Shown here: positions 7,914 through 64,000 of the stretch, piece after piece
Position numbering within the stretch: position 1 is the first letter of the stretch
Layout of the letters: each line of letters starts with the position of its first letter
NCBI GenBank assembly: GCA_000004985.1
Contig: GG738926.1
Source of the DNA: Naegleria gruberi
Taxonomy: Eukaryota
Direction: 5' to 3' (one strand)
DNA length: 64,000 bases
The notes under the pieces: model-generated
Told to the model about the DNA's origin: nothing
What the model saw: only the letters and a program-made list of their open reading frames with translations
Databases searched by the model: none
Position numbers and translations under genes: made by a program

Positions 7914-10900
7914 ATGAAACTATTAAACTTGTTTATTTTTCTAATATTATTTCCCACACTAATTTATTCATCATCCGCAGAGGATACGAGAAATTATTCC
8001 AGCTCATCCATTAATAATTCGAATAATTTTCCTTCATCCTCTTTGAAAACTAATGTTGTTAACTATTCGAAAGGAATTAATTTACAAATAATTTATTACA
8101 TTAATTCTGATGATGTCAAATATCAGAATACAACTTGTCAAGACGAAAGTCATCCATGTTCAGATATGAACCAAGTGATCTTGGCAGCAAATACGAAACT
8201 ATTCGAAATATTTCATGAAAATGATCAAACTAAATTAGATTCTTTTACAATGATTGTCATGATTGATTCGAAATTGGAATGTAACAAACTGCTCTTTGAT
8301 TTTTCAAATTATACGAAACGATTCGAAATGAGGTGGAAAGGATACGAAAATGGTTTATTCTCTGCTTGTCTAAATAGTTTAGATGAAAATTCCATTTTAG
8401 ATGCTTTCACTGTTGAGAATGGAAAGATTTCAGGCGAATTGAATAATAGATTAGGTATCAAGAATTTGGAAATTCGAAACTGTCACGATGGTGGAATGAT
8501 TTACTTTTATACTAAAATAGAAAATTTGCTGATTGCTGACAGTTTCTTTCATGAAGATACTGAAATAACTGAGATTACAAATGTACGAGTGGAAAATACG
8601 CAATTGGATGATTTTGAAATTGTTTCGAATGGAGCAAGTGTTGAAATTTCAAATTCTAAAATTCAAGGAATTGTTGATTTGCAGAATTTTAAATCATTTT
8701 CTATTCGAAACTCAATTTGGAAAAATAACCGAGTTCATGAGGATTATTCATCAACATTTAATTTAGGACAAGATGTTTCATTTGATAATGTAACAACTAA
8801 TGCTAAAATTGTGTTTATTTCAATCAAGTCAATCAAGATGAATGGGCTAATTGTACACAATTATGGAAACGGATATTTCTTGTATCAAATGATACGAGTT
8901 TCTCATTTCTATCTAAGCAACAGTTCGTTTGTGGGAAATTTCGTGCTCAACAACTATTTACTCTCCTTGCAAATAGTTGAATCTATACAAATTGAAAATT
9001 GTACAGTTTCTAATAATGTTGGAGGTTTCATCATGGTAACAGATGCTACTTTGATAATGGGACAGGTGAATATACGAATTAGTAAGAGTGTATTTCAATC
9101 CAACGAGATGCTGTCAGATATTGCTCTAATTGACATTGTGGATCAAACAAGAGAGATGTATTTTATCACAGTTGACCATTGTAAATTTTTGGAAAATACA
9201 GGAGAATCCACTTTACACATTGATGGAGGACTTGCCCAAATTTCCAATTCAGACTTCTACTTTAATATTGCAAACGAACATGGTACTGCATACTTGAATT
9301 GCTATGTTACAATTTCAAACTCTAAATTCATCGCTAATCAAGCCAAGTTAGGAGGAGCCATTTACATTGGTCCTGCTGGAAATATTGATGCATCTCAAAC
9401 AATTGATTTTACTTGTGATAATAATTGGGCAACCTACGCTGGAGGATGCATTTATTCAGAAAATTTGGATTTTTCAAAATTGAAACGCATGAATGGAACT
9501 AATATTGCTAAATATTATGGAAATGATGTGGCCACACCTATTGTGAGTCTGGATGCTACATTTGATGAGGTAGATTCTAATGGAAATATTGAGGTTTACC
9601 CAGGTCAAGCATTCCAAATTAATTTTTTCCCAAGAGACAAGTTCAATCAGAGCACCTCTTATTTATTGAATCAATATTTGTTTATCAATTCAGAAAAAGG
9701 TCATTTTACAATCTCTCAGAATTTTTTAGATGGAATCCATTCTATTCCAGTAGTTTTGCAAATATTTCCAATTGACGACTACAACCCATCATTGCCACCA
9801 CTTGTAATATTGATTTCTTCAAAAATTGAAATCAAAATTCCTGTAAATATTCTCCCATGTCCAGATAGTTCTTTCCTGAAATTATCTCAAAATGGACATT
9901 ACTGTGAACAAATTCCATTAGCAGCGATTCTGTCATCTGTAATTTTGGGAATTATTTTGATAACCATTATATTGGCAGCATTAATAGTGATAGCTAGGAA
10001 ATTATTGAAATTGAGAAAACAGGAACGTGCTGAAAAGAAAATGGAGCTATTGTTCAAAGATAAGGAATTTATATTCGAAACAGAACAAGCACCTCTATTA
10101 CTTTCTAATACCATCAACAGTAGTGATTCAGGTGAAAGTAGATCAATAATTGGAAACAGGCAACAATACATCATTCCAATTTCTGAAATTAATATTTTGA
10201 AAAGAATAGGAGAAGGTGGAATGGGTGTCGTATATCACGCGAAGTGGAATCGAACTGATGTTGCCATCAAACAATTGAAAACAGATTCCAATGATGAAGA
10301 ATTCGAAAATGAAGCAATTTTAATGAGCTCACTTCGACATCCATGTATTGTGAGCTGTTTTGGAGTTTCTCTGACAACCAATGGAAAATATATGATTGTA
10401 GAATATTTGGAAAATGGAAGTCTAGAAAAGGCAATTTATAATTCAAAGATGGGAAGAGCAATTTTGAGATTTGAAACCAAGTTGAAAATATTAACTGATG
10501 TTGCCAAAGGATTAGTTTATTTACATTCAATCAAACCTCATAGAATTATTCATAGGTATGTTTACTACTTTTATTGGAATAGATATTAATTATGGAATAG
10601 AGATTTGAAACCAGGAAATTTATTACTCGATAAGAATATGAATGCAAAAGTTGGGGATTTTGGATTGAGCAAAATTGTTTCGAATAATTCTGCAACAATG
10701 ACAGCAAATGTAGGAACTTTACTTTACATGGTAAGTCTAGATAATTTCACAAATTGAATTAAATTGTTATCAATTTAGGCGCCAGTAAGTAATTTCGAAA
10801 TTTAATTTATTAAAATTTCGAATATTTTACAATAGGAATTACTTTCGAATGATCACAAAGGTCAAAGTACAAAAGTGGACGTTTATTCATTTGGAATTAT

Positions 10901-11243
10901 TATGTGGGAAATTTTATTCGAAGAATCACCATTTTCAAATGAAATTGATGGTTTCACTAATGTTTTCCAAATATTGAAGAAAGTTACAAAAGGTCATCGA
11001 CCACCCTTACTATTCGAAACTAGTGCTTTATTGGAGGCAGATAGAAATCAGAAAGTTGATGAATGGATTGATCATAACTTTACAAAGAAACAAATCGAAA
11101 CTATTGGAAAGGAAAATATTTCTAAATTATATGAATCATATATAGAAATTATGGAACACTGTTGGAATCATGACGCATCTAAAAGACCTGAATTTATTGA
11201 AATTACAGATCAATTAGAAACCTTGCAATCGAACTTTGCTTAA
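7914..11243 (+). CDS. Receptor-like protein kinase: signal peptide, β-helix-like (pectin-lyase-fold-like) ectodomain, one TM helix, TKL-type kinase. Four exons
   Basis: Exons: 7914..10555, 10601..10730, 10779..10784 (6-nt microexon GCGCCA = Ala-Pro), 10836..11243. Introns: GTATGT..AATAG (45 nt), GTAAGT..TTTAG (48 nt), GTAAGT..AATAG (51 nt). Signal peptide [24 protein letters not shown] helix [26 protein letters not shown] (~9918..9990). Kinase motifs [19 protein letters not shown]|DLKPGN (split by intron 1), DFGLSK, YM-AP-ELL, DVYSFG. Confidence 0.75.
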
Positions 11244-11274
11244 TTTCCTTTTCCAATCTTTTTTCAAAGGTTTA

Positions 11275-11970
11275 TTATTTCTTATTATTATTAATGTCAC
11301 TAAATTCATAGATTCCATTTCCATATTGTGCCATTTCTTGCATGTTAGGTGCAGAACCTGACCCAATTCCAGTAAAATGGAATGCATCTCTAATAGATTT
11401 AAAGGCATCAACAGAGCTGATATCCTGAATATGACCATCACACATAATCAAAATATTTTCAATCTTTGGAAATTTCCTAAAAGTTTGGTTTAGGGCTTGT
11501 TTAAGCAAAGTATTACCCAATAATGGAACTGACCACACATTAAGAAATTGGTTTAGAGCATCCAAATCAGTAGGTTCAATTGTGTCTCCGTGTTTAAACC
11601 ACTCAGTTGTAGATCCCCATAAGGCAATGGAAATTTTTAGATCTCCAGTATTAAACGCCTTGGATTGAACAAAATTATTAAAACAATCAATTAAAGTTTT
11701 GAAAGGAGATCCTTTCATTGATACGGAAGCATCACCCAGAATAACAATCTGGCCCTCTTCAATGATAGATGATCCAGCAAGTTTTGAATTCTTACTGGTT
11801 GTCTTGAGAGAGGTATTGATTTTCAAAGCATCTGCTCTAGTGGTCACTTGAGCTGGTTCAATAATCTTTGAATTCACCTCGATACCAAAAGAAGGTATTT
11901 TCCTTTGGAACATTGTGCTTTGAGCGTTTAATATTGGTTCTGGCATCAGGTTATTATGATTATGATCCAT
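11275..11970 (-). CDS. von Willebrand factor type A (vWA) domain protein with no signal peptide, so probably intracellular
   Basis: ATG at 11970 (MDHNHNN). MIDAS-like DxSxS motif in IVILGDASVSMKG. Overall vWA-like α/β alternation. Single exon, 231 aa. Confidence 0.6.
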   Translation of the reverse strand: MDHNHNNLMPEPILNAQSTMFQRKIPSFGIEVNSKIIEPAQVTTRADALKINTSLKTTSKNSKLAGSSIIEEGQIVILGDASVSMKGSPFKTLIDCFNNFVQSKAFNTGDLKISIALWGSTTEWFKHGDTIEPTDLDALNQFLNVWSVPLLGNTLLKQALNQTFRKFPKIENILIMCDGHIQDISSVDAFKSIRDAFHFTGIGSGSAPNMQEMAQYGNGIYEFSDINNNKK

Positions 11971-12037
11971 GGACCTACTACTTACTTTTCAGCATCTTTG
12001 TTCTTCTTGTCAATGTCTTCTACGTTGTTCTTGACAG

Positions 12038-12322
12038 CTACAGTTGCAAAGACATCATCAAGTTGGAGATCTTTGAGCTGTTAGAACCCTCTCCACTTTT
12101 AAACTTTTCCTGCATAGCTTTAATGCTACCTCTTCTTTTTGACAATTCAGTTACTTCCTCTCTTTCCTTGGTAATTGGACTGCTTGAAGTAGAAGCAATC
12201 AAAGGAACTTGAAGTAATGATGGCCTGACTGGAGTCCTCAAATACTTTTGATCAGTTTCATTGCTTGGCTTTTTCTCAAATTGTTGGGAAAGATTTTTAA
12301 CACTGTTTGTTGTTGGTATCAT
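12038..12322 (-). CDS. Small hypothetical ORF (94 aa), Ser/Lys-rich. An in-frame TAG precedes the only nearby GTAAGT, so I keep it separate from the vWA gene
   Basis: ATG at 12322 and stop at 12038-12040. Low-complexity composition. May be a genuine small protein or part of a UTR. Confidence 0.25.
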   Translation of the reverse strand: MIPTTNSVKNLSQQFEKKPSNETDQKYLRTPVRPSLLQVPLIASTSSSPITKEREEVTELSKRRGSIKAMQEKFKSGEGSNSSKISNLMMSLQL

Positions 12323-13165
12323 GTTAGAGTTGATTTTTTTTGATCATTATTTTCCATGACAGCAAGTCAAATGAAAGAATTTCAAATAATTATTGTAAAC
12401 TGATTTTTTAGCAAATTTGCACCAACCTACCCTGTTTGATGGAAAAGAGCAACCAATCCCCAAACAGAAATAAATCAAACATGTCTATGCTGACCTTATT
12501 TCATAATTTTCTGGAAACTAAAGGCAAGAAATAGTACTCTAGTACCGATAATAATTCTTTACAATCTTTTACTACAGTTTTCATGTCAAATCACCTGATA
12601 AATTTATCAACCATGTTCCATTCCGACCAAATTGTAATCCAACATCTCAGTTCTTGAGTGAGTAAAGGAGTTGTTCGCGAAAATTAAATTGATGATGGAA
12701 AGCAAGAAAGGATGCTAAATATTCTATTATACTATTACGAATATTCTTGTTGTTATTGGCTGATAATTTATTATTAATCTCCATTGAATATTATTCTTGA
12801 TGATGAATTTAAAATCCAAGGAAGGCTTCCGAACAACATGTTTTTTCTTGATTGTTGCGCTTTCATTTTCCGTTACAAATTTGCAAATAAAAAATATTTC
12901 AAAATTAAAATCACTGATGATGAAGCCATCAATTATTTCAAATAATACTTGTATCTATTCCGTACAGTAATGATGATGAAACTGGCCAAAACTCTAGAAA
13001 GCCAGGAAGATCGGATTTTTTACTGTTAGCATTCTTCCGAACCTTCCTTTCTCTAAGCCTTCCTTTTTTCAACACCATCACAAAGCCTTGTTATAATAAT
13101 TTAATAATTTGCAACGTTTATTCATCATCAAATTCCTTACTTTCAAAGCCATGAATCTTCATTCA

Positions 13166-13345
13166 GGCAACAAACCTTCCTCCTTTATCACAACAATTAA
13201 TCATCAATTCTACAACATATGATCTTATATTCAATTGTTCATAGATGAAATAATTGCCCTTCATCACAAAAATTAATCATATCAATTCTACAACTTGTGA
13301 TCTTATATTAAATTGTTCATAGATGAAATAATTGATCAGCCTCGG
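13166..13345. repeat. Tandem duplication of a ~90-bp unit, about 450 bp upstream of the pyruvate carboxylase start
   Basis: Unit 1 ~13166..13255 (cctttatcacaacaattaatcatcaattctacaacatatgatcttatattcaattgttcatagatgaaataattg). Unit 2 ~13258..13345 (ccttcatcacaaaaattaatcatatcaattctacaacttgtgatcttatattaaattgttcatagatgaaataattg). Identity ~90%. Confidence 0.6.
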
Positions 13346-13795
13346 CAAATTAGATTAGTCCCCACCTTCACAATGGCATAAACAATCTCATCATTAGCAA
13401 CCAACTTTCTATTATGTTGCAAAAGGGCCTGAAAAAGATCTTGAAAATTCGCGAAAGATTTTCGCTTATTTTTACAATGAACACTCGATTCGGATTTTTG
13501 AGGAGAATAACAAGCAAGAAATTGAGCGAGTACAGAGATAAGCTATTTTGTAAACTCGAGTTGTCTGTATTGGTTGGCGACTTTTAGGATTAATTTGGCC
13601 AGTAGGAAGTGTTCACCTACTCTCTCTCTTTCCACAACTGCAGTTGTTGTTGTGAAAACATTTCACAAACAAAAAAACACAACGAAAACACACTTGTCAA
13701 TTTGTTGCTGTTGATCAAAGAATTTCAAATTTTGTAAAATAGGTAAGCTAATTTGAAAAGAGCTTCTTGAGATTTATAATTTGATCAAACTATTT

Positions 13796-16700
13796 ATGAA
13801 ACCAAACACCAATGTGGATCATTATCAAAAAAAGGACCACATCAAGTCAATCACAACAAGAATGAAGAAAGTTTGTTTATCCAAGTCAACTTCATCCTCT
13901 ACCTCTGCCAAACTCAATTTTGCTATTCAAAAGCATAAGAAGAATGGTAATTCATCTTCAATCTTTAACAGATCTACTCCAATTTCCTTCTCCAACACTG
14001 ACTATATTCAACAATTATATCGTCAATATGGAACCACAAGAATCTCCTTGAAGGAATTTGAAAAGTTGCTTGTGGCCAACAGAGGTGAAATTGCCACGAG
14101 AATTTTACGTTCTGCCCACGAAATTGGTTGCAGAACTGTTTCGATTTATGCAAAACAAGATGCTTCCTCTGTGCATCGTTACAAAGCAGATGGTAAGTTG
14201 TTTTATTTGAATATGTTATTATAATAATTGATCGTATTTTGTAATAATATTTGATGAAATAATTGTAAAAATTCCGATCAATAGAAAGTTACTTGATCGG
14301 AAAGGACAAGGAATTAGGTCCAGTTGAAGCTTACTTGAGCATTGATGAGATTATTAAAATTGCCAAGGAGAATGGAGTTGATGCCATTCACCCTGGTTAT
14401 GGATTTCTTTCAGAGAGAGCTGATTTTGCACGTGCTTGTTCTGAAAATGGTATTCAATTCATTGGTCCAGTAAGTATTTCATGTGATTGCAATAATATAT
14501 TTAACAAATTGTTGGTAGACTGCTGATGTTGTTGAATCTTTTGGTGACAAGACAAGAGCTAGAAAGGTTGCTACTGATATTGGAATTCCTGTTGTTCCTG
14601 GAACTCCAACTGTAAGTATTCTATACTTCTTTAATCCTTAATCGATTGTAAATTATTCAAATAACTTATGTTCATTCCTATTTATAATGAACTTGTCCAA
14701 TTGACCAAAATATTAAGGCAGTAACAAGTATTGCAGAAGCCAAAACCTTCTGCTCCCAAATTTCCTTCCCAGTCATTTTGAAAGCTGCCATGGGAGGTGG
14801 TGGAAGAGGTATGAGAGTTGTTTCCAAAATGGAAGATTTAGAAGAAGCATTCCAAAGAGCTTCCTCTGAAGCTTTGAATGCTTTTGGTTCTTCAGCAATT
14901 TTCATTGAAAAGTTTGTTGAAAAGCCACGTCACATTGAGGTTCAAATCTTGGCCGATAAGTTTGGAAATGTTGTTCACTTGTACGAAAGAGATTGTTCAG
15001 TGCAAAGAAGACATCAAAAAGTTGTTGAAATTGCTCCAGCTCCACATTTGAATCCTCAAGTGAGAGAAAAGATTTTGGCTGATGCTGTTCGTCTTGCTCG
15101 CCACGTCAAGTATCAAAATGCAGGAACATTTGAGTTTTTAGTCGATTCTAATGGAAAGGATTATTACTTTATTGAAGTCAATCCACGTCTTCAAGTCGAA
15201 CACACTGTTACTGAAGAAATTACAGGTGTTGACATTGTCCGTTCTCAAATCTTAATTGCCGAAGGAAAGAGTTTGGACGAAATTGGTTTAAAACAAGAAA
15301 GCATTTCAGTCAGAGGTTCTGCCATTCAATGTAGAGTTACCACTGAAGATCCATTGAATGGATTCCAACCAGATACTGGTGTATTGGAAGCTTTCAGAAC
15401 TGGTGAAGGTATGGGTATTCGTTTGGATATTGGTTCTGGTTATGTTGGATCAAAGGTTTGTTTTTTTAACACTTTACAAAATATTTAATTCTTCTCGTTC
15501 TTTCACATCAATAGATTACACCATTCTATGATTCGCTCCTTGTCAAGGTCATTGGTAAAGGTCTCACTCATGAAGAAGCTTCCAACAAATTGAGACGTGC
15601 CTTGGCTGAATTCAGAATTCGTGGTGTCAAACACAATATTCCATTCTTGCAAAAGGTCTTATCTCATGAAAAGTTCTTAAATGGTTATGTTGACACCTCA
15701 TTCATTGATACTAACCCAGAACTCTTCCAATTCTCATCCAGTGGTAACAGAGCTCAAAAGCTCTTATCATTCTTGGCTGAAAATGTTGTCAATGGACCAA
15801 CTACATTACTCGTCACTGATTTGGAACCATCCAAGAAGAATCCAACTGTTCCAAAGACACCTACTGGTGCTCCTCCACGTGGCTGGAAACAAGTTCTCGA
15901 TGAACAAGGTCCTGAAGCATTTGCAAAGGCCATTCGTGATAGAAGTGAATTGCTCATTACTGACACAACCATGAGAGATGCTCACCAAAGTTTATTGGCA
16001 ACTCGTGTCAGAACCAGAGATTTAATGTCTATTGCTCCATATACTGCTCACGCCATGTCAGATTGTCTTTCATTGGAAATGGGAGGTGGTGCAACCTTTG
16101 ATGTTTGTTTGAACTTTTTGAGAGAATGTCCATTCGAAAGATTGGCTAAGTTGAGAGAAGCCATTCCTAACATTCCATTCCAAATGTTATTCAGAGGTGC
16201 AAATGCTGTTGGTTACACTGCTTATCCAGATAATGTTGTTTACAAATATTGTAAGAAAACAGTTGAACATGGTATGGACATTTTCAGAATCTTTGACTCA
16301 TTGAACTATGTTCCAAATATGGAGTTGGGTATTGATGCTGTTGGTAGCGCTGGTGGCGTTATTGAAGCAGCCATTAGTTATACAGGAGATGTCAGTGATC
16401 CTAAAAAGTCCAAGTATAATTTGGAATATTATTTGAAAGTTGCCAGATCACTTGTTGAAAAGGGAGTTCACATTTTGTGTATCAAAGACATGGCTGGTTT
16501 GTTGAGACCTAGTGCAGCAACCTTATTGATTGGTGCTTTGAGAAAGGAATTCCCACACATTCCAATTCATCTTCACACTCACGATACTGCAGGAACTGGT
16601 GTTGCTACTTTATTGGCAGCTGCTGAAGCTGGTGCTGATATTGTTGACGCTGCTATTGATAGCATGTCAGGATTGACTAGTCAACCTAGTTTGGGAGCTA

Positions 16701-17871
16701 TTGTTGCTTCATTGAAGAACACTCCATTGGATACTAAATTGGATTTGGGTAAACTCTCCAAAGTTTCTGATTATTGGGAACAAGCCAGAGGATTGTATGC
16801 TCCATTCGAATGTACTACTACTTTGCGTTCTGGTTCTAGTGATGTTTATGTCCATGAAATTCCAGGAGGTCAATATACCAATTTGAATGCTCAAGTTTAT
16901 TCCATCAATGGTTCACTTGGTAAGTTTAATTTTTTTACTTTCTAATAGCTAATTATTGTTTTTTTAAATATGAATATAATTTCAGATGGATTCCCTAAGG
17001 TTAAGGAATCATATGAAATTGCCAATAGATTATTGGGAGATATCATCAAGGTCACACCAAGTAGTAAGGTTGTCGGTGATTTGGCTCAATTCATGGTTCA
17101 AAACAACTTGGCTGAAAAGGATGTTATTGAAAAGGCCGATCAATTGTCATTCCCTAACTCTGTTCTCGAATATTTTGAAGTAAATTGGGTATTCCATATG
17201 GTGGTTTCCCAGAACCTTTGAGAACCAAGGTTATGAGAGGAAAACCATCCATTGAAGGAAGACCAGGTGCTAGCATGCCAGATTTTGACTTTGTCAAGTT
17301 GAAGGACAAGTTGAAGAAGGATTTGGATTATGATGCCTCTGAAGAAGATTTGATTTCTTCATCTCTCTTCCCAAAGGTATTTGAGGAATATGTTCAATTC
17401 AAACAACAATATGGTGAGGTCACTAATTTGGGAACTCGTCAATACTTTAAGGGAATTAAAGTTGGTGAAGAAACTGAAGTTGAATTAGAAAAGGGTAAAG
17501 TCTTACATATCAAATTGAAGGCCATTGGAGAAGTTGGAAGTGATGGTAAGAGAGAAGTTTTCTTTGAAGTAAATGGTCAATCACGTCTTGTTTTGGTTCA
17601 AGATAAGAAACTCTCCAAGACTATTCAAATCAGATCAAAGGCCAATAAGAAGGATCCAAATGAAATTGGAGCACCAATGCCAGGTAAAGTTATTGACATT
17701 AAAGTCAAGGAAGGTGATAAGGTCAAGAAGGGAGATACTTTATTGGTCCAAAGTGCCATGAAGATGGAAACTCAAGTCAAGTGTAACTTTGATGGTATTA
17801 TCAAATCACTTGGTGTTAAGGTTGGTGATGAAGTTCAAGGTGGAGATTTGTTATGTATTGTTTCTCAATAA
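13796..17871 (+). CDS. PC: Pyruvate carboxylase (biotin carboxylase + carboxyltransferase + biotinyl/lipoyl domains); six exons with an apparent 1-bp frameshift in the last one
   Basis: Exons: 13796..14192, 14285..14469, 14519..14611, 14718..15455, 15515..16919, 16986..17871. All introns are GTAAGT/GTTTGT…AG, 49–106 nt. Collinear with established pyruvate carboxylases. Motifs: [85 protein letters not shown] (carboxyltransferase), [18 protein letters not shown] (biotinyl-Lys). The N-terminus is a basic/Ser-rich presequence-like region. Expected GAA GGT AAA TTG reads GAA G-TA AAT TGG around 17180, which is one G short. Confidence 0.9.
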
Positions 17872-21595: not shown

Positions 21596-21657
21596 ACAAG
21601 TGAATTTTCTTGTGCAAAACTCTGGTAATAAAATCTTTGGATGGCTCGCCACGTTTA

Positions 21658-21728
21658 CCGTCTCGGGAGGAATCGAACCTCCGTCAATGGATTCAAAGTC
21701 CACTATGCTACCATTACACCACGAGACG
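21658..21728 (-). tRNA. tRNA-Gln (anticodon UUG)
   Basis: The reverse complement folds as a cloverleaf: CGTCTCG / TG / GTGT-AATGGTA-GCAT / A / GTGGA-CTTTGAA-TCCAT / TGAC / GGAGG-TTCGATT-CCTCC / CGAGACG / G. Anticodon loop CTTTGAA gives TTG. T-loop is TTCGATT. Architecture matches a canonical eukaryotic tRNA-Gln(UUG). ORF 21555..21743 overlapping it is spurious. Confidence 0.8.
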
Positions 21729-22429
21729 AGCACATTAATTTGAGAACCTTAATGGATATTGAGGAATCAAAACAAAGTTTTCGTTGAATTCAACAACACA
21801 CACATTGATGAGGGATTGACAGCTTTATCGGATATGATGTGGATGGAATGTTGGTTGTACTTTTCCGGTAGAAGGAATTAATTATTCTTGAAGGATATTG
21901 TTAATACGGTGGTTGTCGCTTCTTGTTGAACGTAACTGGAGTGTTTAAATAATGTTGTTTTTCAAAAGATGAATCACACTCATCCACTAATTATTGTTTT
22001 GTTACCATCATCATTAAAATTCATCTCGATGCATTAACGATATTTTTTAAAATATTAAAAAAATCTTCACAATACGTCCACATATTTATTATTAATATCA
22101 TCTTTGTTGTATCATCATGTAACAGATCTACAGAAAAATTAAGGAAGAGGGATTAGAATTTTGAGAGATTCGCTATGGGTCAATCATCATGAACAGAATC
22201 TTTTGGCTCATTCGGATTTCCAACATCAAGCATCATAGCTTTGCCTCAATAACAATGAAGAAAAGAGAGTACAAAAAAAGAAGTTTAAAGGTCCTTATGC
22301 CGCCTAATACCTCCGACTAACTAGGAAAATTAGAAAATACTAGATTAACTCTTCAAGCAACCTGGAACAATCAATCAAACAACCTAACAAAAAAAAAGAT
22401 AATCACAGTTGACCTGCTCATCATCTAGA

Positions 22430-34943: not shown

Positions 34944-35016
34944 GCCCGTCTAGCTCAGTCGGTAGAGCGCAAGGCTCTTAACCTTGTGGTCGTGGGTTCG
35001 ACCCCCACGGTGGGCG
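34944..35016 (+). tRNA. tRNA-Lys (anticodon CUU), copy A
   Basis: GCCCGTC-TA-GCTC-AGTCGGTA-GAGC-G-CAAGG-CTCTTAA-CCTTG-TGGTC-GTGGG-TTCGACC-CCCAC-GGTGGGC-G. Canonical eukaryotic tRNA-Lys(CUU) architecture. A T-rich tract follows (attctcttttttctctttttt). Confidence 0.9.
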
Positions 35017-36001: not shown

Positions 36002-36074
36002 GCTGGCGTAGCTCAGTCGGTAGAGCGTTGGTCTAATAAGCCATTGGTCGCCGGTTCGATCCCGTCCGTCAGCA
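36002..36074 (+). tRNA. tRNA-Ile-like (anticodon AAU), with one mismatch each in the anticodon and T stems
   Basis: GCTGGCG-TA-GCTC-AGTCGGTA-GAGC-G-TTGGT-CTAATAA-GCCAT-TGGTC-GCCGG-TTCGATC-CCGTC-CGTCAGC-A. The overall plan and loops match a canonical eukaryotic tRNA-Ile(AAU). Mismatches are 27T·43T and 50C·64T. Confidence 0.6.
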
Positions 36075-42076: not shown

Positions 42077-42149
42077 CGCCCACCGTGGGGGTCGAACCCA
42101 CGACCACAAGGTTAAGAGCCTTGCGCTCTACCGACTGAGCTAGACGGGC
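42077..42149 (-). tRNA. tRNA-Lys (anticodon CUU), copy B; identical in sequence to copy A
   Basis: The reverse complement equals the 73-nt copy A sequence. The same ~35-bp upstream element (atttacaaaaagttgatattgttaatgaaatgtag) and a T-rich downstream tract are present. Confidence 0.9.
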
Positions 42150-44894: not shown

Positions 44895-44967
44895 CGCCCA
44901 CTGTGGGGGTCGAACCCACGACCACAAGGTTAAGAGCCTTGCGCTCTACCGACTGAGCTAGACGGGC
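44895..44967 (-). tRNA. tRNA-Lys (anticodon CUU), copy C; single-base variant in the 3' acceptor strand (C to T on the + strand, giving a 7C·66A mismatch)
   Basis: The reverse complement equals copy A except for one substitution (cactgtggg versus caccgtggg on the + strand). A related upstream element (aaaagttgatattcaatgtgaaaggtag) is present. Confidence 0.8.
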
Positions 44968-54756: not shown

Positions 54757-56330
54757 AAAGGTGTAAGGTTAGGATTCAGAATTGATTTATTTGGGTTATT
54801 TAATAGATTACTTAGTGAAGATTCATATCATTGATTATATTTCTTATCATCTATAAATGATGTAAATTTGATGGTTTCATTTCTTATATTGACAGATATT
54901 TAAAGGTCAGGTCAGTATCAACTTTTGTATTATGGACTTTGAGAAGTAGATTGAATCAGGTTGATTTGCATGCAATATGAATAAGTAACATTATCAAGAG
55001 TGATTATTCACCAATTCAATAATCAATATTCAATAATCGGTTGGATTTCAATCAATAGCTTGCTCATCAAGCTTTGAATATTAATATTCCAGTAATTAAC
55101 GGCAGTCTATTTTTAAATTTAATCAAAGACCATATATAGTATCTTGACTTTTATGATCTGGAAACTATCTAGATGTGTTCTATATTGAATAATCTATTTG
55201 AAAATGAGAAGAATTAACTCTTCTACTGAGTTTTATTGGTATTGCATGGAATTACGATTATAATAATCTACACAGAAATCACTCTTGAAATATAAACTGT
55301 ACTAAAATGTATGAGAAACATACTGTTGGTGGAATTAACCAATAAATCGCTGAAGTGACTGAGATGGAATGTAAGCAATGGACTATTTGTCATGTAAAGG
55401 TGATTAGACAGTGTCAATTTCATCAAATTGTTTCAAACTGATTACATTCAATAAAAAAACCGTTCTATACATCACGTATGTCATACAGAATGAGTTTCAA
55501 TATTTAAGATTGTGAACTGACTCTGTTGGATACCATCTCTATAAATATAACAAGATGAAAAGTGTCAATATTCAATTTCACATGTATGTTACTATGGAGA
55601 GTCATCATTATATCATCTGGATAGGTAATATTTCAAGTTTCAGTGGAATAGACAGTCTAGATATTGAGATGTGTATAAGGTGAAAGAAGTGTCACCTTCA
55701 CTGATTACTGACATGAATATAATAATTGAATGTATTATTCTTGTATAATTAATTCATTATTCAATGATTTGGATTTTGGATATGATGGTAAAAATTAATT
55801 TTGAAATTAAGATTCTTCCCTTTTGATTACCTTAGATGGAATGTTGCCATGAATATAAAACTTTCTCAGATTGTTCTCCTCATCAAGGGAAGTGTATTCA
55901 TATTTGATACAAGTATGATATTTTGTAAACTGACTGAGATGGTATTCATTCTATATGTTGAAATATGACAATTTGACAGATTGTTATTATTATCATATTG
56001 AATTCAATTCTAAAACACTAAAATTGATACCAGATGTATATCAGTGTGAATAAATGTATCTGGTAAAGTTACATGATGTTTGGATATACTTTCATTGAGA
56101 CAGAGTGTACAATTGGATATAAGCATATTGACATTGAACATTTACTGATTGACTGAATGAAAGTATCATGAATTATTTCTAAACTTGTATAGATGTATAT
56201 AAATGGTGTATAGAATTTGTGTTATCAATTCTAGACTAATTACATATAAAATAAGTGATTTGGAGCATAATCTTTGTTTTTATGTCAAAGTTCTATAGTA
56301 AAATGATAGAGTTGTCAACTCAATATCTTT
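54757..56330. repeat. Dispersed non-coding repeat family, copy 1 (~1.6 kb; its 5' ~1.1 kb matches copy 2 and its 3' ~0.5 kb matches copy 3)
   Basis: 54757..55840 aligns by eye to 56617..57850 at ~90% identity, with a ~180-bp indel around 56800-56990 in copy 2. 55860..56330 aligns to 63080..63570 at ~75–80%. No ORF longer than 60 aa. Confidence 0.6.
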
Positions 56331-56616: not shown

Positions 56617-57850
56617 TGGTTAGGATTCAGAGTTGATTTATTTGGGTTATTTAAGAGATTACTTAGTGAAGATTTATATCATTGATTATTTTTCTTATCA
56701 TCTATTAATGCTGTTAATTTGATGTTTTCATTTCTTATATTGATAGATATTTAAAGGTCAGGTCAGTATCAACTTTTGAAATATGGACTTTGAGAAGTCA
56801 AATGTTTGGGACGTGAATCTACTCATTGGATTGAATATGTATTGCTAATAAAGGAACATTTCATTGATTTATTGATTATAACCGTCAAATTGAGTTGAAT
56901 GGAAGTGATTCTTATGTTGATTGATCGTGGATGGGTAGTTTCGCCACGTAGTGGTGCAACTACCAACCTTTGTAGATTGAATCAGGTTGATTTGCATGCA
57001 ATATGAAATATGTAGCAGTATCAAGAATCAAGAGAGTGATTGTTCACCAATTCAATGATCAATATTCAATAATCGGTTTGATTTCAATCAATAGCTTTAT
57101 CATCAAGATTCCAGTAATTAACGGCAGTCTATTTTTAAATTTAATCAAAGACCATATATAGTAGCTTGACTTTTATGATATGGAAACTATCTAGATGTGT
57201 TTCTATATTTAATAATCTATTTGAAAATGAGAAGAATTAACTCTTCTATTGAGTTTTATTGGTATTGGATGGTATTACGATTATAATAATCTACACAGAA
57301 ATCACTCTTGAAATATAACCTGTAGTAGAACGTATGAGAAACATAATGGTGGTGGAATTAATCAATAACTCGTTGAAATGACTGAGATGGAATGTAAACT
57401 ATGGTCTATTTGTCATGTAATGGTGACTAGACAGTGTCAATTTCATCAAATTATTTCAAACTGATTACAATCAATAAAAACCCGTTCTATACATCAAACA
57501 TGTCATATAGAATGAGTTTCAATATTTAATATTGTGAACTGGCTGTGTTGGATACCATCTCTATAAATATAACAAGATGAAAAGTGTCAACATTCAATTA
57601 CACATGCATGTAACTATGGAGAATCATCATTATATCATCTAGATAGGTAATATTTCAAGTTTCAGTGGAATTGACTGTCTACATATTGAGATGTGCATAC
57701 TAAGGTTAAAGAAGTGTCACCTTCACTGATTACTGACATGAATATAACAATTGAATTTATAATTCCTGTATAATTAATTCATTATTCAACGATTTTGATA
57801 TGATGGTAAAATTTAATTTGAAATTAAGATCTTCCCTATTGATACCTAGA
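56617..57850. repeat. Dispersed repeat family, copy 2 (truncated by the assembly gap)
   Basis: Long collinear identity with 54757..55840. Ends at the N-run. Confidence 0.6.
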
Positions 57851-57900
57851 NNNNNNNNNNNNNNNNNNNNNNNNNNNNNNNNNNNNNNNNNNNNNNNNNN
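57851..57900. other. Assembly gap (50 N)
   Basis: Run of 50 n characters, next to a repeat copy. Typical of a scaffold gap placed at a collapsed repeat. Confidence 0.95.
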
Positions 57901-59460
57901 TTTTATATCTACAGACTTGAAGTTTAGAAATGTGATATGAAAGTGATTATAAATGTTGTTAATGATGATATAGACTATATAATCTCATTAAAGGATTTTG
58001 AAATTGGGTTTGGATTAGAGAACCTCGGATACCTCTTACTCCAATCTCTTATTGATTTAAGATTTTGAAATTGTTTATTGTTGATACGAATCAGAAGCTT
58101 CTTATTGTGACAACACTTGATAGAAGAATGGGAAAGTGGTTGCATTAATTCAACATATTGAAAGTGAACAAGGTTCTCATCTCAAGATTTGGAACTCTTC
58201 TTCATGAAGAGGAGGTTATTGGGTGGTGACTAGAGAGAAACATTTCCTTGTAGCTTTTCTACTAGTAAATGATTAATTGACCAAGATGTTGACCTATAAT
58301 ATGGAAACACAATAAAATTCAATAATACTGATAAATACAGTAGTGAATATGAATGGTAATTATAAATCACTGAAAAAATCATGATTGGATCCATTTTGAG
58401 ACTTTTGGAAGTCAACTTGGATGGCAATAGGGGAGCTTTCGATGTGGTTAACACTTTTAAAGGGATCTGAATATTTTATTAGATAATATATGTCATCACT
58501 GTACTTTATCAATAAATATTGAATATCATGATGTTATAATCTATATTTCCAATTTGGGAAATGTTGCAATGTCAATGTTTAATTGAAATATTGCCATCAT
58601 ACCAATAATTGATTTTATACTACAAAACTGGTATTATACACTATAATTGATATATATATGAATATATGATTGAAATATTTCAATTTTAACATTTATTAAT
58701 GACGTGGGTTGTGCACTAAGGTAGTAACTTTGTCATATGATAATTATCTAAGATGATATTGAAATCATTCCAAAATTGATTTTATGAGAGTATTTGATGA
58801 TTATAACATGATAATATTGAATTAGTATTGATTATTACCATTCATGACATGTAAGAATGTTACCTTTTTGTCAATTGGGACAGTAGCTTGACAGATATTC
58901 CAATTATATAGATGTTGATTTATATTACTCAAATACGTTATGAATATCAATTATAAGAGTAGTTGTATGATATTCTATCTTGTTGTACATCTTGATATTG
59001 ACTTGTAATATTATCATGAGTAGTTAGTGACATGGTTTAATGGCATGAACACTGAATGATGTCCAAATGATTTGAAATTGATAGAAACCTCAGTATATAA
59101 TGTTAATAACATATTGTATCAATTTGGTATTGAATCTCATTGTCCTTAGGGTACTTTCCTATTGAGGTACCTTAATTGACCATCTCTATATTTAAATTGA
59201 GATAAGATATTTATTTCAATTGTATCATCATTTTGTAAATGATAAGTAGTCAAGTTGTGTATAGGACACTGAGTGGTGTAGAATTGGTATAACATTATTT
59301 TCAACATTTACAAGTGCCATTTCTCATCATCTGTTGGACCAAAACAAAATTTTTTGTTATAGTGGTGGTTTTTTTACTAATATCCACATGTACAATATCG
59401 GAACAAGGAGATGCTCTATAGTTGTGCAGAATCATTCCACCAACAATAAGTTTTTGAAAT

Positions 59461-60109
59461 ATTCTTTTCTTAGTGAACTTTGCTTGCATCATAATTATTA
59501 AGGAATTGTTTCAAGTAGATGGAAAGTGTTCTAAAATTGCTGTAGATGGTAACATTCCGTTACAGCATAGTTAAATTCTAAGAAATGATTGAGATTTGTG
59601 ATTTTTTCACAACTGTAATCTTTAAAACAATGGTTGTTATCCAACCCGATGTAAAAACTTTTTGAAATTGTTTCAAATGAACGTGGAGTGGCTCAAACCC
59701 GTTGCTTCTTTTCAAAAAAGAGACTTATCCAACCTTTTGAATGAGAATGTATTAACTATACAACAAACTGAAATTTATTTTTTCTTACTGAACTTTTCTT
59801 ACTTCACAATTATTAAGGAATTTTTTCAAGTAGATGGAAAATGTTCCAAACTCGATGGAAATGGTGGCAGTCCTTTAAAGTGTACTTAAATTCTCAATAA
59901 TGATTGAGATCAGTCGATTTTTCACAACTGTAATCTTTAAAACAGTGGTTGTCATCCAACCCGATGTAACAACTACTATTAAATATTTCAAATGAGCTTG
60001 GAGTTGCTCAAACCCGTTGCTTCTTCTCAAAAGAGTGACTTATTCAACCTTTTGGTGGGGATTGTACAATACTGTTCAACAAATTAACATTGTCTTTTCT
60101 TAGTGAAGT
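59461..60109. repeat. Satellite-like tandem array, part 1 (~2 units of ~315 bp)
   Basis: Units are marked by ataattattaaggaat…ttcacaactgtaatctttaaaaca(g/a)tggttgt(c/t)atccaacccgatgtaaaaac…gctcaaacccgttgcttcttttcaaaaaagagacttatccaaccttttgaatgag. The anchor attattaaggaa occurs at ~59494 and ~59809, so the period is ~315. Confidence 0.65.
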
Positions 60110-61645
60110 TTTCGAGTGAATACTAAGAAACGGAGTGACGGAACACACAGTCTCACGGAATCCGCCTCAAGTAAGAAACTGTCCAACGGGGCAGTCTGAA
60201 GTAAGAAACGGAATTAAGAATGGATATTAAGCTCAATAACACAGTAACATTCTAAAATTGTTCTAATTGAATAAAATAGGCTATTCATTTGTTGTTGGAT
60301 TTAATCTACTTGTTCTTAACGATTTCATTCCCAAGATCAAATTTCACATTATTATTTCATGAAACTTTTCCCACTCGATGTGTGCATTCATATATGTTAC
60401 CAGGTTAAGTTTCATTGTTTGATTTTGTAATTTCAACTAACAAATTAGCAAATCTTTGAATAGATTTGTTTCAAGTTTATTCGCAAATAATAAAACATGT
60501 CAATTACAGTTAGTAGCATTGTCATTATTTATATATCCATAATTATTCAAAAAATTCAGGTTTCGTCATCTGATCCAAGAGTTATTTAGAATTAAGGGAA
60601 AAAAAGAGTGTTAAGGACTGCCTTATATAAAAAATTAAAAAAAAAGTGAAATTTATTATTAATTTGATATTTACTAATACATGGGAAAGTTACATGATTT
60701 GGAAATTTAATTTGGGCGAGTAAATAACCAATTCTTAGTCAACCCAACCGGAACTTGACCAACACAAAAGAAAAGGAATAAATTATAATAAATATGATGT
60801 TTATTATCAATTTAAATAGTACTACTAGAAGAAACTTTTTGATTTGGTGAAGTACATGATGGGTAGTATAATGTGTATTTTCAAATTTCACACATACCTT
60901 TCCCTATCATAACTTGACCAAAAGTCATCGGACAAAATCTTTTCTGATACTATTGACCATTCCGAACAATACTATGTTGACAGATTTCCAATTTGTACAG
61001 TAGATTCCACACTGATGATGAATTTAGTGAAAATGGTGATTTTCAACTAAAATTAAATTACTGAAAATTAATTTCCACAAATACTATTATTATATCGATG
61101 GAAAATATCATTGATGATGGTTGGTAAATGATCAGATGATGGTATCACCAACATGAATTTTTCCATGATGAAAAATAATTTCTAATTTCATGATGATAAT
61201 TTTCCAATAAAAATCACTATTACTACTATATATAGATGATGTAGAGATGACGAGCTGAAATTATTGTGGTATAAAGATGTGAAACCACTCCGTAAATCAT
61301 CAAAGTACATCACGTACTAGATGTTGAAATATTTTTTCTTCCAAAATCCAGTCAGACCAATTTGGTGATGTTTGGATGTGTTAGTTATTGCTTATTCTTC
61401 AGTCAAGCAAGCCATATTAAACAAACAATTGAAAGTAAGCTTAGTCAAAGTTTCAAATATAAAAGGAAAATTCAAAAAGTAATTATGTCTCATTCATTTT
61501 ATTAATGTTACTAAGCTCTCTCTCCATATTTGAATTGCCAGCTTGTAGTATTAAGCGGAGAGAATCTCCCGTTTAGAATAAGAAACGGCCTGAATCCCGT
61601 TCATCCCGTTGCCCGTCTCACCGTTTATTTGTATCAACTCGAAGT
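60110..61645. mobile_element. ~1.5-kb non-autonomous TIR-bounded insertion (MITE-like DNA-transposon relic) splitting the satellite array
   Basis: Left end ttttCGAGTGAATACtaagaaacggagtgacgg. The right end reverse-complemented reads cttCGAGTTGATACaaataaacggtgagacgg, so the imperfect terminal inverted repeat is ~30 bp at ~75% identity. aagtttt/gaagtttt is present immediately outside both ends (60106-60113 and 61641-61648). The interior is AT-rich with no ORF above 60 aa. Sub-terminal repeated aagaaacgg motifs. Confidence 0.45.
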
Positions 61646-62470
61646 TTTCCTTCATCCTAATTATTAAGGAATTTTTACAAGTAGATGGAAAATGTTCAAA
61701 ACTGGCTATAGATGGTATAATTCCATTGAACTATACTCAAATTCTTAATAATGATTGAGATTGGTCGATTTTTCACAACTGTTATCTTTAAAACAGTGGT
61801 TGTCATCCAACCCGATGTAAAAACCACTTAAAATTGTTTCAAATGAGCTTGGAGTTGCTCAAACCCGTTGCTTCTTTTCAAAAAAGAGACTTATCCAACC
61901 TTTTGAATGAGACTGTATTATACTATACAACAAATTAAAATTTTTGCATTCTTTGAACTTTTCTTACTTCACAATAATTAAGGAAGTTTTACAAGTGGTT
62001 GGAAAATGTTCTAAACTGTATGTAGATGGTAACATTCCAATGGACTATACTCAAAATCTTAATAATGACTGAGATTAGTCGATTTTTCACAACTGTAATC
62101 TTTAAAACAGTGGTTGTCATCCAACCCGATGTAAAAACGACTTGAAACTATTTCAAATGAACGTGGAGTGGCTCAAACCCGTTGCTTCTTTTCAAAAAAG
62201 TTCCTGATCGAGCAATGTGATGAGGCTGTAATACACTATTCAACAAAGTAAATTGTTTGCAATCTTACTGAACTTTGAATATTTCAAAATTATTAAGGAA
62301 TTTTTTTACAAGGGGATGGAAAATGTTCTAAACTGTATGTAGATAGTAACATTCCATTGGAGTGTACTCAAAATCTCCATAATGACTGAGATTTTCCATT
62401 TTTTCACAACTGTAATCTTTAAAACAATGGTTGTTATCCAACCCGATGTAAAAACTGTTTGAAATTGTTT
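61646..62470. repeat. Satellite-like tandem array, part 2 (~2.6 units of ~315 bp)
   Basis: The same unit as part 1; the anchor attattaaggaa occurs at ~61660, ~61975 and ~62289. The array ends at …gtttcagggtttggttatcg. Confidence 0.65.
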
Positions 62471-63079
62471 CAGGGTTTGGTTATCGTTTCGTACTCATTG
62501 GATCTTTATTATTACTGAAATACATAATCAATGATATACATCATTAAATAGGTAACAATCTCAGCTATCCAGTGGGCTATAGATTGTGTATAGTTTCTTA
62601 TCTAATTAGGGTTTGGATTAGAGTTGTTTTGATTTGTTACTTCGGTGGCACCATGGTCTTTATGATCTAATATAGAGTCTTTAAGTGAATCTTGGGCTTT
62701 TGGAAAGGTTTTTCAGTAAAGTTTTAAAAAAAGTATATAATTTCTATCTAGATATCGAGATTTGGTGTATTTGTTGTTTGCGTTGTTATTTGGAAAGTGG
62801 TAAAGATTTCGATATTATTGGATTCTTAGATTCGGTTTCCATTTCGAAATTGATTGAAGATTCGCTAAGATTCGAATCTTTTTCCGCAAATAAGAATCTT
62901 TTCCGGTATGAGATTGAATATTCAATTAGCTTTAGGTTTTTAGGTTTAGATTCTTGGGTTTTCGGACAAATAAATTTAAGCTGTTCTATTTTGGCGTATA
63001 ATTTTTAAAATTACTTTTCAAAGTAAATCGATTTTATCTACGTTAAAATATTGTGTTCAATTATTATATGGATTGGTTG

Positions 63080-63570
63080 CAACTTTAAGATATTGATCTA
63101 TGAATATGAAACTGTTCCAGATTGTTATCCACATAAAGAGGAGTGTATTCATATTTTACACTAATATGATATTTTGCAAAATGAATGGGATGGAGTGTGA
63201 TCTTTGTGATGAAAGCTGACTTTTTGGAAGAATGATATTATTATCATACTGAATATAATTCTAACAGACTGTAAATGATACCATATAATTAATAAAGTGA
63301 TTTAATATATATGGTAAAGTTATATATTGATTGAACCTACTTTCATTGAGATAGAGAGTTCACTAGGATATTAATACTGTTGACATTGAACATGAACCGA
63401 TTGGTTGAATGAAAGTATCATGAATTGTTTCTAAACTTGTTTATATATACTTAAATGATGTCTAGATTATGTGATATCAATTTTTGATTTATTGCATGTA
63501 AATTGAGTGATTTGGAGTATAATCTATGATATCATGTCAAAAGTCCATAATAAAGTGATAGAGTTGACAA
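63080..63570. repeat. Dispersed repeat family, partial copy 3 (matches the 3' portion of copy 1, 55860..56330)
   Basis: Collinear blocks such as aaactgttccagattgtt…ggagtgtattcatatttt…atgatattttg…tttcattgaga.agag…tgacattgaacat…gaatgaaagtatcatgaatt.tttctaaacttgt… are shared with 55860..56330. Confidence 0.5.
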
Positions 63571-64000
63571 CAGGACATTTACTGAACCAATATTCATAAA
63601 ATTGATACCATATGCTAATTAGAGTGTCTACATACCATGATATCAATTTCAGTGAAAATGGAGTTGTTTCTGTACCCTTCAGATTTCCATCCATTCACTT
63701 GAAATATCACCATGTACTATCTACCGGATGTATTTCTTGAAATGAAAATATATAATTTGAAGAAAGTCCACTTTATTTGAGATGTTAAACATGATAGTAT
63801 CATTTATTTTGAGATTGGTAACTTTCTCTATAGTGTAATCCTTAATTGTCTTAATTGACTAAAAAAGGTCAAGGAGATATTTCAAAACATAAAATAAATT
63901 ATATTTTCGAGATGTACTATTGATTTCCAATCAATTGATATGTATTTTGTTGATTGAGGATTTGGTTCTCTATATTCAAGATTTCCTCCTTATCCTCCCA

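Follow-up and report, generated by a model that had tools for sequence, protein, structure and literature searches.

Introduction

Mutator-like elements (MULEs) make target-site duplications (TSDs) of 8-11 bp and carry terminal inverted repeats (TIRs) of 14-500 bp (PMC6446971). In Trichomonas, the TvMULEs combine TIRs of 20-38 bp with TSDs of 9-11 bp. The TIRs of Mutyl, from Yarrowia, are imperfect and 22 bp long, and its TSDs measure 9-10 bp (PMC2725143). In mosquitoes, 10 of 12 long-TIR MULE families possess short subterminal repeats, and non-autonomous derivatives have kept their ends around heterogeneous interiors (PMC5225508). In the Ac/Ds elements of the hAT superfamily the TIRs are 11 bp long, and the Ac transposase binds AAACGG hexamers that occur several times within about 200 bp of each end (PMC3260210). 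Merlin elements make TSDs of 8-9 bp and have TIRs from 24 bp with a conserved terminal 5'-GG-3' (PMC8101967). Here we describe a 1,527-bp element in a 64,000-nucleotide stretch of DNA from Naegleria gruberi (contig GG738926.1 of assembly GCA_000004985.1; the whole of this stretch is referred to below as the window), in which it splits the third unit of a short tandem array of a 315-bp repeat. The element is most likely an ordinary, well-delimited non-autonomous TIR DNA transposon, with Mutator-like the most likely superfamily.

Nearly all eukaryotic genomes contain non-autonomous DNA transposons that have inserted into repeats and, in this sense, the element is routine biology. The locus does offer a built-in empty site, with which the insertion, its exact borders and its 9-bp duplication could be fixed from one sequence and with no second genome. 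As in transposable element insertions into satellite and tandem arrays generally, one monomer is interrupted and its neighbours retain the uninterrupted form. Unlike typical satellite insertions, the array is tiny (4.7 units) and was seen at one locus only.

The element splits one unit of a tandem array

The array spans positions 59461-62472 of the window and is composed of four full head-to-tail units and one partial unit of a 314/315-bp repeat, or about 4.7 units. The original prediction, which was made from the letters of the sequence, had placed a tandem array of about 315-bp period here, and this was borne out by Tandem Repeats Finder (TRF), by a repeat search and by an nhmmer profile built from the units; its count of five to six units was not. 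TRF reported a period of 315 at 59460-60054 (1.9 copies, 84% matches) and a period of 314 at 61659-62455 (2.5 copies, 86% matches). When 60114-61649 was removed and the remaining sequence was cut at a conserved anchor, the four full units measured 315, 315, 314 and 315 bp and were followed by the partial fifth unit, with pairwise identities between units of 73-86%. The repeat search and the profile recovered these five units and none besides in the window. In its constant monomer length and head-to-tail arrangement the repeat is built as a satellite is. The label "satellite" also implies genomic abundance, and it must be considered unproven because we have seen the 315-bp repeat at this one locus of about 4.7 units only. 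A conserved 23-mer of the repeat had no match in GTDB or in viral contigs.

Unit 3 contains 1,536 extra bases. At the left junction the unit reads ...CTTAGT GAAGTTTTC and passes directly into the element (GAGTGAATAC...), and at the right junction the end of the element (...GTATCAACTC) is followed by a second GAAGTTTTC and then by CTTCATCC... In the uninterrupted units the corresponding sequence occurs once, as CTTACT GAACTTTTC TTACTTCAC. Deletion of 60114-61649, that is, of the element and one copy of GAAGTTTTC, produces a 314-bp unit 3 that is gap-free against its 315-bp neighbours and, because the deletion restores a unit in register, the extra bases are accounted for by one insertion plus a 9-bp duplication. 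The neighbouring units serve as an internal empty site, equal to one from another genome, and show the target once where the element has it twice, as is expected of a class II TSD. The 1.5-kb insertion that had been proposed is, therefore, upheld by the restoration of unit 3. Its flanking duplication had been given as aagtttt, of the 7-8 bp size; this heptamer is truly duplicated, but the full direct duplication extends to the 9 bp of GAAGTTTTC. Coordinates are collected in Table 1.

The way in which the two halves of unit 3 fit together also bears on the possibility that the 1.5-kb segment is not a transposon at all and that its inverted termini are fortuitous. The segment might instead be a retroposon, filler DNA from the repair of a double-strand break, or unique DNA between two arrays. 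In keeping with this, the segment is known as a single copy and none of the collections searched contained anything related to it; moreover, retroposons too give TSDs of variable length. However, two independent arrays around unique DNA are excluded because the half-units join in perfect register, and capture during repair would not give a 9-bp duplication together with TIRs. Neither end has a poly(A) or simple-repeat tail, and a retroposon was rejected on the grounds that the element is tailless. The structure of the ends, described in the next section, speaks against a non-transposon origin as well, and we consider such an origin highly improbable.

Two further element types were considered and rejected: a Helitron, which makes no TSD and has TC...CTRR ends, and a solo long terminal repeat, which would need TG...CA ends and a TSD of 4-6 bp.

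Table 1. Positions, in window coordinates, of the array, the element and its parts, and the tRNA genes.
Feature	Position	Strand	Basis or remark
Tandem-repeat unit 1 (315 bp)	59461..59775	+	TRF period 315, unit alignment, nhmmer profile E=8.7e-98
Tandem-repeat unit 2 (315 bp)	59776..60090	+	TRF, unit alignment, nhmmer profile
Unit 3, first 23 bp, left of insertion	60091..60113	+	Joined to 61650-61940 gives a 314-bp unit in register
Left 9-bp TSD GAAGTTTTC	60105..60113	.	Other units have a single GAAC/GTTTT(C/G) here
Inserted non-autonomous TIR element (1,527 bp)	60114..61640	.	Borders set by TSD and TIR
Left TIR GAGTGAATACTAAGAAACGGAGTGACGG	60114..60141	+	22/28 identical to reverse complement of right end
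Left subterminal cluster, five ACGG motifs at 60130, 60138, 60155, 60186 and 60208	60130..60211	+	Two are TAAGAAACGG
Right subterminal cluster, five CCGT motifs at 61569, 61597, 61606, 61613 and 61621	61569..61624	-	Motif scan
Right TIR (reverse complement GAGTTGATACAAATAAACGGTGAGACGG)	61613..61640	-	Matches left end at 22/28
Right 9-bp TSD GAAGTTTTC	61641..61649	.	Duplicate of 60105-60113
Unit 3, rest	61650..61940	+	Unit alignment, nhmmer profile
Tandem-repeat unit 4 (315 bp)	61941..62255	+	TRF, unit alignment, nhmmer profile
Partial unit 5 (~217 bp)	62256..62472	+	Repeat search, alignment, nhmmer; array ends after ...GAAATTGTTTCAG
tRNA genes	21657-21729, 34944-35016, 36002-36074, 42077-42149, 44895-44967	-, +, +, -, -	

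Structure of the element ends

The TIRs (GAGTGAATACTAAGAAACGGAGTGACGG against GAGTTGATACAAATAAACGGTGAGACGG) are 28 bp long and begin at the first base inside each TSD copy, from which they are identical at 22/28 positions in an ungapped alignment. The imperfect inverted termini quoted in the original prediction are thus real; their alignment reaches 24/31 when the TTC of the duplication is included. We compared the two ends with genomic controls, which were 40-mers drawn in pairs from the window and separated by the same distance as the element ends. The TIRs gave a local score of 16 as opposed to a maximum of 14 in the controls, and 0/4,982 control pairs were as good; 2/5,000 shuffles reached the score. 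That inverted termini of this quality are anchored exactly at the duplication argues against a fortuitous origin of the kind considered above.

Over about 100 bp at each end the motif (A/G)ACGG also recurs five times; the two sets are arranged in mirror orientation, and two of the five lie inside the TIR. Counted from the left end, the top-strand motifs start at 17, 25, 42, 73 and 95 nt; counted from the right end, those of the bottom strand start at 17, 25, 32, 41 and 69 nt, with offsets of 17, 25, 41/42 and 69/73 agreeing between the ends. Put differently, the first 98 bp contain five ACGG on the top strand and the last 72 bp another five on the bottom strand, while the background in the window is 0.81 per kb per strand. 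The end clusters are, therefore, about 60-fold over background and the two element ends are the only two places in the window with at least four ACGG per 110 bp (the left cluster was reported as two overlapping 50-bp bins and is a single region). Mirror-image clusters that are restricted to the two ends would be difficult to reconcile with filler DNA or a retroposon. Exact AAACGG hexamers are found on the top strand at 60128-60133 and 60206-60211 and on the bottom strand (as CCGTTT) at 61569-61574 and 61621-61626. One further AAACGG, at 61583-61588 (within a copy of TAAGAAACGG at 61579-61588), has the orientation of the left end and is reversed relative to the other right-end motifs.

The element as a whole has a GC content of 30.2%; its terminal 110 bp reach 46% and its interior has 27.5%. 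The original description of the insertion as AT-rich is correct, but AT-richness is not distinctive here, the array having 31.4% GC and the flanks 28.5%. GC-richer ends on an AT-rich interior are as might be expected if protein-binding ends enclose filler DNA. From their arrangement, the ends appear to have the standard anatomy for a transposase that recognizes a terminal repeat together with reiterated subterminal sites, and we infer that the (A/G)ACGG motifs are candidate binding sites.

The end sequences can be set beside the two TSD copies to ask how the element is placed in time relative to the array. The array is older than the insertion; it must have formed first because its units are 14-27% diverged, and the element later inserted into a single unit, with no co-amplification afterwards. 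The TSD copies are identical at 9/9 positions, which bounds the age of the insertion weakly: if the six TIR mismatches all post-date insertion, an intact TSD pair would be expected with a frequency of about 11% ((22/28)^9). Probably the TIRs were never perfect.

Coding capacity and search for relatives

The longest stop-free stretch in the element is 69 aa. A six-frame search against Pfam detected 0 families at E<=1, and a query made by concatenating the stop-free segments of at least 28 aa from all six frames found 0 homologues at E<=1e-3 among 5.8e9 proteins. The element is non-autonomous because it lacks any open reading frame (ORF) above 70 aa and has neither a Pfam domain nor a homologue among known proteins. 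In this respect the original prediction, which had noted the lack of a transposase ORF, was accurate. Its broader proposal of a non-autonomous cut-and-paste element is likewise supported by the restored register, the anchored TIRs, the mirror motif clusters and the lack of coding capacity. Nor was a transposase domain found elsewhere in the vicinity, either in ten large ORFs of the window scanned with Pfam or in stop-free segments of at least 50 aa from the ORF-free flanks.

Searches for a second copy were also negative. Sensitive blastn and nhmmer revealed no similarity between the element and the rest of the window, and searches with both 20-nt termini, at a tolerance of 3 mismatches, turned up no copy in the remaining 62 kb. 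A degenerate TIR pattern, GAGTKRATACWAAKAAACGG, gave 10 matches in JGI metagenomes and 2 in GTDB genomes and no match in viral contigs. None of these matches extends past the 20-mer, their contigs range from 32 to 66% GC, and the GTDB pair is from bacterial metagenome-assembled genomes. Their number fits chance, with approximately 15-33 expected per 1e12 positions. We conclude that the public matches are due to chance; those collections do not include the host genome.

The sole Rfam match, to snoR66 inside the element, was sub-threshold (21.7 bits as opposed to a gathering score of 43; E=0.42), and folding of both element ends and of the conserved core of the repeat gave z-scores of -0.65 to -1.6.

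Two subclasses of non-autonomous element were ruled out. A Pack-MULE carries a fragment of a host gene, and unlike such elements ours has no captured fragment detectable by Pfam, by the protein search or by comparison with the window. Miniature inverted-repeat transposable elements are below about 800 bp and have a high copy number, and the present element, with 1,527 bp and a single known copy, does not belong with them.

Superfamily assignment

The features described above make it very probable that the element is a TIR DNA transposon of the class II, cut-and-paste type. For the fuller proposal, that a non-autonomous TIR transposon has inserted into unit 3 and that a MULE is the leading but unproven assignment, we would put the probability at roughly 0.85. 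The assignment to MULEs in particular is one that we hold tentatively. In the scenario we favor, the array of about 4.7 units of 315 bp was already present when the element entered its third unit, and a staggered cut in the target would have been filled in to give the 9-bp duplication GAAGTTTTC. Since the element codes for nothing, a transposase from elsewhere in the genome would have moved it in trans, presumably by binding the 28-bp imperfect TIRs and, at either end, the set of five subterminal (A/G)ACGG repeats. Such an element would correspond to the short-TIR type of MULE known from protists and yeasts, with a 9-bp TSD, imperfect TIRs starting GAG and short subterminal repeats.

With regard to described MULEs, the TSD has the typical length of 9 bp, within the range of 8-11 bp, and the 28-bp TIR lies within that of 14-500 bp, at its short end, as do those of TvMULE and Mutyl. 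The closest known systems are short-TIR MULEs of protists and fungi and their non-autonomous derivatives, among them TvMULE1-4 (Trichomonas vaginalis), Mutyl (Yarrowia lipolytica) and Muta1-derived elements (Aedes aegypti); with these the element shares the size of its TSD, its imperfect TIRs of 20-40 bp, its short subterminal repeats and the existence of non-autonomous copies with unrelated filler. The likeness is one of described features and, unlike known MULEs, this element has no MURA-type transposase linked to it and one known copy. In the original prediction the duplication had been assigned to the hAT/Mutator-like size class; with a duplication of 9 bp, the better fit of the two is no longer hAT, which makes 8 bp, but Mutator-like, which makes 8-11 bp.

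Several observations weigh against a MULE, or against placing much confidence in one. Many MULEs have TIRs above 100 bp (PMC5225508), compared with 28 bp here, and (A)AACGG subterminal repeats are a textbook feature of the hAT elements Ac/Ds (PMC3260210). The element is known from one copy, there being none other in the window and the public matches being due to chance, and its repetitiveness and mobility are presumed. With no transposase linked to the element, the superfamily is read from the length of the TSD and the structure of the ends, and it is provisional because neither a transposase nor a second copy was found. Finally, the 9-mer begins and ends with three self-complementary bases (GAA...TTC) and, because of this, the border between TSD and TIR can be placed in several ways; alternative symmetric borders would shorten the TSD to 7 bp, in which case the TIR would start CGAG, or to 5 or 3 bp, and an asymmetric border would give 8 bp. 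We weighed these readings by the base coincidences that each needs, given the base composition of the window and with no penalty for the offset of the 8-bp reading. The resulting shares were 0.68 for 9 bp, 0.22 for asymmetric 8 bp, 0.07 for 7 bp, 0.03 for 5 bp and 0.01 for 3 bp.

The share of the 8-bp reading, with its offset unpenalized, is relevant to the possibility that the element is a Ds-like non-autonomous hAT element. In that case the true TSD would be GAAGTTTT or AAGTTTTC, the ninth base would be coincidental and the AAACGG-type repeats would be bound by a hAT transposase. There is resemblance to maize Ac/Ds (PMC3260210) in the short TIRs and in the (A)AACGG-type clusters within about 100-200 bp of both ends, including exact AAACGG near each end, and the 1.5-kb size and the interior unrelated to any transposase gene recall Ds-like elements of about 1-1.5 kb, such as Ds-l4. 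However, an 8-bp TSD puts the TIRs one base out of register (CGAGTG... versus GAGTTG...), and subterminal repeats are also found in MULEs (PMC5225508). The element differs from Ac/Ds in having a duplication that we read as 9 bp and not 8 bp, in its termini (GAGTGAAT... and not C/TAGGGATGAAA) and in residing in a protist and not a plant. A short CG-containing motif held in common with maize Ac is, moreover, weak evidence across kingdoms. The terminal consensus of hAT elements is 5'-YARNG and their target consensus is nTnnnnAn; the termini GAGTG/GAGTT, or CGAGT, misfit the former and neither 8-mer fits the latter. For these reasons a hAT element seems unlikely to us.

It is also conceivable, if rather doubtful, that the element is a member of another TIR superfamily or of an uncatalogued family. 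The host appears to lack close sequenced relatives (its best named homologues in the window are 63% and 41% identical) and its mobilome is unexplored, and both circumstances would favor such an outcome. Merlin (TSD 8-9 bp) and P (TSD 7-8 bp) are the candidates among described superfamilies. Merlin, which is IS1016-like, would accommodate the 9-bp TSD and TIRs of at least 24 bp (PMC8101967), but the conserved terminal GG is missing, as both ends start GA (or CG, TC or TT in the alternative readings), and subterminal repeat clusters are not a described feature of Merlin. The TIRs of P elements start CATG, compared with GA here, and the 7-bp TSD had a share of just 0.07. A bolder version of the same idea, that a deep and essentially unsequenced protist lineage has an uncatalogued TIR family that combines Ac-like repeats with a 9-bp TSD of Mutator size, strikes us as a long shot. 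If it were true, the transposase might fit cleanly into neither the hAT nor the MULE groups.

The terminal ~100 bp with their candidate transposase-binding motifs provide a probe for the autonomous partner and for the mobilome of this lineage.

A conserved core in the 315-bp repeat

The original prediction had described long blocks that are exact between units. One of these, a 53-nt core (TTCACAACTGTAATCTTTAAAACAGTGGTTGTCATCCAACCCGATGTAAAAAC), is indeed present in all five units (59606-59658, 59921-59973, 61772-61824, 62086-62138 and 62403-62455) but with 0-2 substitutions per unit, and is exact in just one. The other, of 55 nt, is exact in two units, but a third unit has 8 substitutions. Variable columns account for 4/53 positions in the 53-nt core and for 77/217 overall (binomial P=2.5e-6). 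The core had no match in Rfam and no significant fold. Possible causes of its conservation are constraint, gene conversion or a protein-binding box. The core could be a functional box of the last kind, related for example to a centromere or to replication, and not inert satellite, but we regard a functional role as a long shot.

The repeat is non-coding. An 87-aa reading frame in the repeat gave two weak matches among 1.84e9 representative proteins, one to a bacterial protein with Big_12 Ig repeats (E=1.2e-6 as the sum of 6 stretches) and the other to an ankyrin protein. Every frame of the repeat contains several stops per unit, and substitutions between units are distributed over the codon phases as 34/32/30 (p=0.83), with no periodicity. 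Because of the stops in every frame and the lack of codon periodicity, we judge both matches to be spurious, and a decayed coding repeat is ruled out on the same grounds.

Genomic surroundings

The window is gene-dense, intron-poor and AT-rich (about 34% GC). Its long ORFs encode a pyruvate carboxylase, a P4 flippase, EGF-rich transmembrane kinases and BTB, F-box, DUF4116 and NHL proteins, and Pfam searches of ten large ORFs detected ordinary host domains only. The best named homologues of the pyruvate carboxylase and the P4 flippase are those referred to above, at 63% and 41% identity, respectively, and closer relatives are unnamed metagenome proteins.

The array is located in the last 9 kb of the window (54.7-64 kb), which has 28-30% GC and no ORF above 107 aa. 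This tail contains no Pfam-recognizable coding remnant and no recognizable remnant of a transposable element protein, and it looks like a repeat island. Within it, a repeat of about 1.1 kb is present as two copies (A at 54767-55832 and A' at 56618-57847) that are 89-94% identical and 1.85-2.0 kb apart. A' is longer by 174 bp (56798-56971), a segment whose termini show weak inverted similarity and which lacks a clear TSD; either A' could have gained a small insertion or A could have undergone a deletion. Another repeat, of about 470 bp, has one copy on each side of the tandem array (55849-56319 and 63100-63571; 78% identical). A 50-N scaffold gap at 57851-57900 directly follows A'. Because the tail is rich in repeats and contains a scaffold gap its assembly is uncertain, and this repeat-rich, ORF-free 9 kb should be handled cautiously.

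Another part of the window has a close counterpart in public metagenome data. The product of the pyruvate carboxylase exon is 100% identical to a protein from the ENA metagenome assembly ERZ929261, and contig k127_29330 of that assembly is 95-98.6% identical in DNA sequence to 9242-17372 of the window; identity to this contig is only 90% in the intergenic 12841-13256. Judging from these identities, the same or a sister species is present in the ERZ929261 sample.

Five single tRNA genes (Gln-TTG, three of Lys-CTT and Ile-AAT) lie between protein-coding genes of the window, and the three copies of the Lys-CTT isoacceptor are within 10 kb.

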